Source: Macrostomum lignano
Lineage: Eukaryota
Length of the DNA: 18,494 nt
Direction: 5' to 3'
Assembly: GCA_002269645.1 (NCBI GenBank)
Contig: NIVC01005244.1
Coordinates: 1 to 18,494, forward strand
Shown in pieces: positions 761 through 1,045 of the stretch. How positions within the stretch are numbered: position 1 is the stretch's first letter; each line of letters begins with the position of its first letter. The translations under genes and the position numbers were made by a program. Below the pieces are notes generated by a model. The model made no database searches and was not told the DNA's origin. It was given only the letters and a program-made list of their open reading frames with translations.

Positions 761-865
761 CCTTTGGTGACCCAAGGGAGCCGCTAGCTGACTAATCATC
801 TGTATCTGGCACGACGCAGGGGTGGTGCCCTGGCGGATGACGCTGCCGCAGCTGTCACAGTTAAG

Positions 866-907
866 CGGGCCGGGGTTTTGTTCGATGTCGCCGGAGAGGA
901 TGACATG
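866..907 (-). other. 2A-like ribosomal skipping (StopGo) peptide HVILSGDIEQNPG|P
   Basis: Exact match to the D(V/I)ExNPGP consensus (gac atc gaa caa aac ccc ggc ccg, 889-866), preceded by a hydrophobic stretch and followed by CxxC. Confidence 0.85.
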
Positions 908-1045
908 AGCAACGAGCCATGGAAGGTTGACGATGCACCAGGAGAAGACAACGAGGTTGAGGAGGGTCACGCGGTGACCGCCGCCGCGCTCTGCGTCCGT
1001 GCCGAGAGCACGAGACGAGGCTGGCGGTTCAGTTGCCTGATGGTT

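Follow-up and report, generated by a model that had tools for sequence, protein, structure and literature searches.

A truncated, probably Ingi/Vingi-type retrotransposon of Macrostomum lignano opens with a predicted HDV-like ribozyme followed by a 2A motif

Among the closest described systems is L1Tc, an element of Trypanosoma cruzi in the L1Tc/ingi clade. Its 5' end carries an HDV-like ribozyme with a C at +1 and a P1.1 helix of one or two pairs (PMC5814959, PMC3185411, PMC4035085, PMC3708506; here and below, as far as the available parts of the cited papers go), and a 2A motif with the core DIEQNPGP lies near the start of its single ORF. All of these features are shared by the element reported here, in which the ribozyme is a predicted one. 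An IRES, or cap-independent translation, has been proposed to go with the L1Tc ribozyme (PMC5814959, PMC3185411, PMC4035085); ribozyme-aided initiation is discussed in PMC6765202 and PMC13725137, citing Ruminski 2011, and a braking effect of 2A on ORF2 has been described (PMC3894237). Ingi is one of the six clades that PMC5786205 lists as having a ribozyme at the 5' end, and the available part of PMC11203168 adds nothing on structure.

Elements in which a PHD finger lies between the 2A and the APE endonuclease are known from marine invertebrates. Ingi-1_AC (from Aplysia), Crack-17_BF, CR1-1_BF and STR-24_SP have this order, which as far as the piece extends is also that of the present element, with the 2A 40–80 residues from the start, about the distance reported for non-LTR ORFs in general (PMC3708506). 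The 2A of Ingi-1_AC is >97% active in vitro, and the same source cautions that a 2A motif by itself does not guarantee skipping activity (PMC3708506). Ribozymes receive no mention in the available part of that paper, and the likeness of its elements to ours is known by description, not by sequence. The Vingi elements, a sister group of Ingi, have a single APE-RT ORF without RNase H (PMC13708176). No 2A was found in Vingi by PMC3708506 in its available part, nor did the literature searched, with most subscription papers outside its scope, yield a 2A in Vingi-like elements.

The window analyzed here is an 18,494-nucleotide contig of M. lignano (NIVC01005244.1, assembly GCA_002269645.1), in which innexin, glutamate dehydrogenase and TFIIS genes (Pfam) point to an animal host. 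The minus strand of positions 1114–805 is probably the first 310 bases of a single-ORF, Ingi/Vingi-type retrotransposon, in which a predicted HDV-like ribozyme is followed by a 2A motif, with a likely start codon at 1050 ahead of it, and then by half of a PHD-like finger (Table 1). A single ORF with a 2A near its start and no ORF1 is a trait of this type; here, 158 bases separate the AUG from the 2A core and the 5' edge leaves no room for an ORF1. The layout itself is already known, ribozyme plus 2A from L1Tc and 2A-PHD-APE from marine-invertebrate elements, and this copy is likely a truncated member of it. Relative to L1Tc, which has its endonuclease directly after the 2A, this element has a PHD-like finger at that place; it resides in an animal and not a trypanosome, and the window copy lacks APE, RT and RNase H. 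The first-pass annotation had suggested that ribozyme and 2A may form a cap-independent expression module, which is not a new inference since it is already published for L1Tc. No endonuclease or RT follows the 2A in the window copy, and owing to this truncation the enzyme part cannot be made from it. The copy is a dead relic, because the sequence stops inside the PHD-like finger and the P1 helix is mismatched.

Table 1. Coordinates of the features at and around the 2A element in the window
Feature	Position	Strand	Remark
Endonuclease remnant from another LINE, decayed and AT-richer, oriented towards the 2A piece	1..804	+	Pfam Exo_endo_phos_2, E 6e-6 at 239-547
First half of PHD-like finger (C-x2-C-x12-C)	805..865	-	cut before the fourth cysteine
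IRQGTTPASC	838-809	-	
CDSC	859-848	-	
2A/StopGo core SGDIEQNPG|P	866..895	-	predicted skip between G (871-869) and P (868-866)
Predicted 61-residue leader	869..1050	-	would be released by StopGo
Hydrophobic run, leader residues 30-52	896..964	-	last third is the 2A aliphatic tract
One base missing vs public contigs, short single-letter run	1025..1026	.	likely assembly error; runs X1, X4, X5 (three studies), two contigs each
Predicted HDV-like ribozyme at element 5' end	1046..1114	-	descriptor match; predicted cut 5' of 1114
Ribozyme P1	1114-1108/1085-1079	-	6/7 pairs, one G-G mismatch
Ribozyme P2	1104-1099/1051-1046	-	6/6 pairs
Ribozyme P3	1098-1096/1088-1086	-	3/3 pairs
Ribozyme L3	1095-1089	-	7 bases
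Ribozyme P1.1 (one pair) and P4	P4 within 1078-1056	-	descriptor
Ribozyme J4/2	1055-1052	-	putative catalytic C at 1055
Likely start codon within P2' strand	1048..1050	-	five bases past putative catalytic C, A at -3; frame after 1025 fix
AUG at J1/4-P4	1076..1078	-	in frame in window letters only, likely out of frame in genome
Host-derived spacer, imperfect copy of 2310-2338	1113..1144	.	26/29 aligned bases identical
3' end of separate 5'-truncated non-LTR element	1144..2297	-	RNase H, zinc finger, stop 1202, (AAG)6 tail 1161-1144

The 2A motif SGDIEQNPGP, the hydrophobic run before it and the CDSC and IRQGTTPASC after it all lie where the first-pass annotation had placed them, on the minus strand, which it had left unstated. 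Reading the window in six frames gives no other motif of the NPGP type, where residue frequencies would predict about 2e-5, and a DNA pattern of 2A followed two residues on by CxxC matched the window once and 0 of 200 shuffles. The class A core is (D/G/C/N)(V/I)ExNPGP, its D preceded by G (PMC12846837); GDIEQNPGP conforms to this, and its DIEQNPGP is the core of most L1Tc copies (PMC3708506). Class A peptides further have an aliphatic hexapeptide upstream that ends in (A/S/C)G; the HVILSG found here is aliphatic and ends in SG but, set by eye against the LLLLSG-like class, has a single Leu.

Protein searches with the piece gave no retroelement relative: 0 of 40 candidates passed, the ESM Atlas returned two clusters at 0.75 that offered no lead, and phmmer against 1.84 billion proteins gave three matches, two tandem-2A proteins and one unrelated repeat protein. 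That the best phmmer matches are tandem 2A proteins could be taken to mean that the 2A derives from an integrated RNA virus, as could four of the 27 rows found with the DNA pattern (L001, L011, L026 and L027, two of them from IMG/VR), which look viral or carry no retroelement domains. Those four rows, however, have other cysteine spacing and no HDV-like fold, whereas in PHD spacing and in the length of its leader the window piece agrees with retroelements, and a viral origin is thus extremely improbable. Two short proteins (P0012 and P0014) hold four to six tandem 2A-like repeats.

Relatives were instead obtained with the DNA pattern, which matched 25 metagenome loci, 2 loci of the viral collection (IMG/VR) and no locus in prokaryote genomes; a search of metagenomes for related loci with P0006 confirmed none of 49 stretches. 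The 27 loci are redundant (L001/L011/L026, L003/L006/L014/L024, L007/L017 and L004/L021 are one family each), four rows come from one assembly, and the four viral-looking or unrelated rows were excluded from the alignments. APE, RT or RNase H was found by tblastn at 12 of the 27, and 6 of the 27 have endonuclease and RT in one open frame after NPGP, by a domain scan that covered 16 of them. The order 2A-APE-RT-RNase H occurs in one frame in P0086, L008, L023 and L025, and 2A-APE-RT without RNase H in L004, L019 and L021. An APE/RT ORF in frame after NPGP, the absence of which had been named beforehand as grounds for giving up the proposal, is therefore present in relatives. They likewise support the proposed arrangement, in which an APE-type non-LTR ORF has a 2A motif close to its start, preceded by an HDV-like fold and followed by a PHD-like finger.

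P0086 is a natural full-length protein in which Met, 56 residues, GDIERNPGP and a PHD finger precede APE-RT-RNase H. Together with L008, L023 and L025 it shares with our element the succession of 2A and cysteine finger, which in this group runs on into APE, RT and RNase H without a change of frame. In L023 the first in-frame AUG also lies at the J4/2-P2' junction of an HDV-like fold. The group differs in that only the 2A core and finger align (12/21 identities with P0086) and the leaders are unrelated; its tails, where seen, are AAC- or CAT-like rather than AAG. In L004, L019 and L021, by comparison, a P-x-W-L tract before the 2A core resembles that of the window. These three combine 2A and cysteine finger with APE and RT, end in a zinc finger at the C-terminus and have no RNase H, and so look Vingi-like. 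Separately, L001, L011 and L026 represent one sequence, also in the viral collection, in which CCHC zinc knuckles follow the 2A and no retroelement enzyme was matched.

What follows the predicted skip had been called a PHD-like finger. Three cysteines have the spacing of a PHD finger, but only half a finger is present: the complete C4-H-C3 set is interrupted after these three, and no Pfam PHD match was found in the window piece. A third cysteine at +12 after CxxC occurs in the window and in 14 of 28 relatives, several of which, with fitting cysteine spacing, pass Pfam PHD. When scored against the profile of the relatives, the 21 finger residues reach 18.2 bits, a score attained by 0 of 1000 shuffles.

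The ribozyme that the first-pass annotation had put directly upstream of the 2A stands as a prediction with moderate statistical support. The nested double pseudoknot, with P1, P2, P3, P1.1 and P4 in order, is present by descriptor, and so are U...G in L3 and C followed by purine-A in J4/2, the role and numbering of which (the C being 1055 here) we take to be those of the HDV ribozyme. Its descriptor score was reached by 0 of 200 shuffles of the 400 upstream bases and by 7 of 100 shuffles of the whole window, which has a second, weaker match at 3578-3681. The descriptor in question was a looser one, written after viewing the sequences; a first, stricter one found the fold only in the window, in L013 and, as one poor match, in L016. 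Rfam RF02682 scored the site below threshold, at 17 bits (E 0.64) against a gathering score of 44, and the whole-window Rfam scan contained no ribozyme match, as was the case for the 16 of 27 pattern loci scanned. Minimum-energy folding did not recover the pseudoknot (z 0.84, no better than shuffles). A model built from seven relatives alone ranked the window fold first in the window, at 11.6 bits and E 0.25; among the 27 loci this model finds only its 7 training loci.

Relatives and position argue that the fold is genuine. Within 400 bases upstream of the 2A, an HDV-like fold was detected at 7 of the 27 loci, compared with 0 of 27 on the antisense strand and any match at all in 29 of 5600 shuffles. 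All seven belong to the 12 loci that have retroelement domains by tblastn, and the Vingi-like L019 and L021 are among them. The descriptor gave no match in L002, L004, L008, L018 and L022. Across the seven fold-bearing loci, 10 of 21 pairs change on both sides in a rough alignment (4 of 500 shuffles), the pairs having been picked from these same seven sequences. The base after P1 pairs with L3 as U-A in the window, C-G in L009, L013, L020 and L023 and A-U in L025, all in a seven-pair register, and as C-G in L019 and L021 in a six-pair register. With the fold at the very edge of the element and covariation in the context of its relatives, it is likely real by descent. Whether the window copy could cleave itself is doubtful; for an R2 ribozyme, inactivity has been associated with P1 mismatches of this kind (PMC3774820). 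In one contig of another relative the J4/2-AUG word is retained and P4 is different. As a separate observation, the first base of the ribozyme directly follows an AAC-type repeat in L009, L013, L020 and L023, which in three of them is the tail of a preceding copy; tail-to-ribozyme tandems were found in L009, L013 and L020, with L013 a circular contig.

The folds of the relatives also bear on the clade. The element might be a LINE of CR1, L2, Crack or Rex1 type with 2A-PHD-APE, its HDV-like fold being due to chance or borrowed. The 2A-PHD-APE order has been described mainly in Crack and CR1 elements (in the available part of PMC3708506), the same PHD spacing occurs in L003, L006, L007, L014, L017 and L024, which have no fold and no tblastn match to P0086, and the window copy has no RT by which it might be placed. 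Yet all seven folds of the relatives precede ORFs that bear RNase H or are Vingi-like, CR1, L2, Crack and Rex1 are outside the six 5'-ribozyme clades listed in the available part of PMC5786205, and the fold sits exactly at the element edge. A CR1/Crack-type origin is accordingly rather improbable, and Ingi/Vingi remains the favored assignment.

The start of the ORF had presented a puzzle. In the letters of the window, as the first-pass annotation had read them, the AUG at 1078 inside the ribozyme is the sole one in frame with the 2A, and reading from the AUG at 1050 meets a stop at 967 after 27 codons. This reading of the letters is accurate, but the frame relation is probably not real, for it rests on one missing base. 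Public contigs were compared for 4 of 24 runs (X1, X4, X5 and X11), of which X11 has no coverage at 1025. An extra base behind 1025 is carried by both contigs there in run X1 (depth 43.5/43.5) and in run X5 (48.9/48.9), and by two contigs in run X4 at a depth of 267/487, where the other 220 units, without the extra base, are unexplained. One of the two contigs is the ~93% sibling copy, which means that more than one copy has the base. When an N is inserted behind 1025, the AUG at 1050 comes into frame with the 2A, its reading passing NPG at residue 61, and the frame of the AUG at 1078 is lost.

Two controls agree with this correction. First, a gap of the same type was found at 1460 (X1, X4 and X5), where filling it joins RNase H to the zinc finger and stop, as in full-length relatives. 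Second, a substitution at 1045, at full depth in X1, X4 and X5, is silent in the frame of 1050 and changes a residue in that of 1078. Could the original layout nevertheless be real, with the P2' AUG opening a short upstream ORF and the polyprotein beginning at 1078 within the ribozyme? It matches the window letters, part of the X4 depth is without the extra base, and among the relatives neither L013 nor L010 has its junction AUG in frame. Against this stand the two distinct contigs with the extra base in each of three runs, the same error type at 1460, the 1045 substitution that is silent only in the 1050 frame, and the further frameshifts of L013. A start at 1078 is thus very unlikely; most likely the puzzle is an assembly error and the start is the AUG at 1050. 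That an odd start-codon layout could be traced to a one-base error in the window is a practical lesson. Positions 1-2300 of the window show several one-base gaps and many substitutions relative to public contigs, and findings there that depend on frame need care.

In the corrected frame the start codon would lie at the J4/2-P2' junction, a placement not found in the literature searched (most subscription papers outside its scope). Besides the window, the junction AUG is in frame in L023. Of the seven fold-bearing relatives only L023 and L013 have it, and it is absent from the other five; that of L013 is out of frame. The same word is in frame in L002 and L018, both without a fold match, and out of frame in L010. 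It has been considered that in some Ingi/Vingi-type elements an AUG in the last helix of the ribozyme, behind the catalytic C, is hidden until the ribosome melts P2, so that folding, initiation and StopGo form a chain of throttles on RT output, and that in some lineages a membrane-length leader diverts unskipped protein from the nucleus. This is a speculative proposal that we regard as improbable. As the junction AUG is found in only two of seven folds and the word also occurs outside folds, it may be merely a good start context. Other starts among the relatives are of separate interest. L025, with a 1491-codon open frame after the 2A and a good HDV-like fold, is open for a further 98 codons upstream without an AUG in that frame and might use a non-AUG start. 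L020 likewise has none in frame from the fold to the 2A. In L009, L013 and L020, a GTRAG word resembling a splice donor lies about 20 bases past the ribozyme, with pyrimidine-rich stretches later; an intron within the leader would be odd for a retrotransposon.

The predicted leader, at 61 residues in the window and 65 in P0086, is of the length expected from the published range of 40–80. The hydrophobic stretch within it had been described as signal-like. A hydrophobic run is indeed present, with a 19-residue mean of 1.98 on the Kyte-Doolittle hydropathy scale, but as a signal it is doubtful: of the 61 residues it begins only at the 30th, it ends in what is the ordinary aliphatic tract of a 2A, and a 19-residue mean above 1.6 is found in just 3 of 28 relatives (L009, L013 and L020). 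A long hydrophobic leader is not general among relatives. The aliphatic tract just before the core is part of class A 2A function (PMC4981915, PMC12846837, bioRxiv 10.64898/2026.09.24.754024).

The sea-urchin SpNLR2A sequences have a comparable hydrophobic stretch ending in a D(V/I)ExNPGP core (PMC4981915), and signal sequences of this 2A type have been shown for NLR proteins. By analogy, and compatibly with the main reading, the leader could double as a signal or membrane anchor, such that the unskipped fusion goes to the ER and only the skipped protein to the nucleus; the hydropathy of the run and its likes in L009, L013 and L020 would suit this. The SpNLR2A signals, however, are N-terminal parts of host immune proteins, about 26 residues long with the 2A included, whereas the run occupies residues 30–52 of a retroelement leader, and 25 of 28 relatives have no such run. 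Furthermore, the aliphatic residues before the core belong to the 2A function itself, and the run ends nine residues before the skip, so that it would still sit in the exit tunnel if this holds 30–40 residues. A targeting role of the leader is possible and not favored, and we consider it unlikely.

The 5' edge of the element is marked twice: the sibling copy, at ~93% identity among public contigs, diverges at 1111, and host sequence begins at 1113. This host spacer matches 2310-2338 better than any other of 1830 windows, with 0 of 2000 shuffles equal, and likely arose as the target-site duplication of the RNase H insertion. P1 may take its first base or first two bases from this spacer, and a host origin of these bases would explain the G-G mismatch. 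The RNase H piece (Pfam RNase_H, E 9e-9) is 46% identical to the APE-RT-RNase H protein P0001, and its other copies leave the window sequence at 2297. It could not be placed in an RNase H tree of 22 rows. A canonical 2A occurs in the called protein of 1 of its 74 relatives, namely P0086; the others are mostly barnacle-type proteins with no 2A in the called sequence. With a duplicated host segment on either side of the RNase H piece, this piece and the 2A piece more likely inserted separately, both at the start of a broken GDPD/phospholipase-D-like gene, and RNase H therefore says little about the clade of the 2A element. The copy of that segment between the two pieces argues against a head-to-tail tandem of one element as in L009, L013 and L020.

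The left end is less sharply defined. GC rises at 805, from 0.32–0.56 to 0.72 going into the 2A piece, and left-flank contigs stop at 804 in three runs, placing the junction near 804|805, although a variant 30 bases earlier could also end those contigs. Among the 32 of 284 pieces listed, no contig spans 804|805 or 1130–1160. The piece could in principle be unbroken, a short, internally deleted and non-autonomous family resembling RIME or NARTc. Ingi and Vingi spawn such derivatives (PMC5786205), the ~93% sibling exists alongside a contig 91% identical over 819-990, and the variant just mentioned would account for the contig ends at 804. Nevertheless, the left end has neither a tail nor a target duplication longer than 6 bases, the sequence beyond 804 reads as the other strand of an endonuclease-element remnant, and the break falls in mid-PHD, all of which makes an intact short family a very remote prospect compared with truncation. 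The run that yielded the 91% contig was guessed to be RNA, and the contig is unusable as evidence of expression.

For an intact copy the following sequence of events can be proposed. By analogy with L1Tc and R2, the ribozyme would release the element RNA out of a longer, read-through transcript, so that its 5' end has no cap. Ribosomes would then start at the AUG in the P2' strand, as the frame suggests, and make the 61-residue leader, after which, judging from the motif, the Gly-Pro bond would be skipped at NPG|P. Fewer ribosomes would continue into a PHD-endonuclease-RT protein with or without RNase H, a domain order taken from relatives and absent here. The likely purpose would be to keep the enzyme scarce, as has been proposed for L1Tc. 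If this reading is correct, one more animal lineage is added to those whose single-ORF retrotransposons rely on both an HDV-like ribozyme and a 2A, and the L1Tc layout of ribozyme then 2A would recur with a PHD-like finger in several eukaryote elements, Vingi-like ones included. The start codon inside the P2' strand of the ribozyme would be one testable twist.

The remainder of the window holds further genes and repeats. The broken GDPD/phospholipase-D-like gene (2330-3563, plus strand) is leucine-rich at its start and cysteine-rich at its end, and contains an internal duplicate of 141 bases; both retroelement pieces lie at its 5' end, and the depth of public contigs is higher over the gene. 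A DDE_3 transposase remnant (3861-4781, E 3e-11) is situated between inverted repeats of 54–63 bases, and a THAP-like domain (5934-6762) between 80-base inverted repeats at 99%. Finally, a tRNA-like sequence at 12419-12487 (plus strand), just over the Rfam gathering score, is located between the halves of the TFIIS-like gene and is possibly the head of a SINE.
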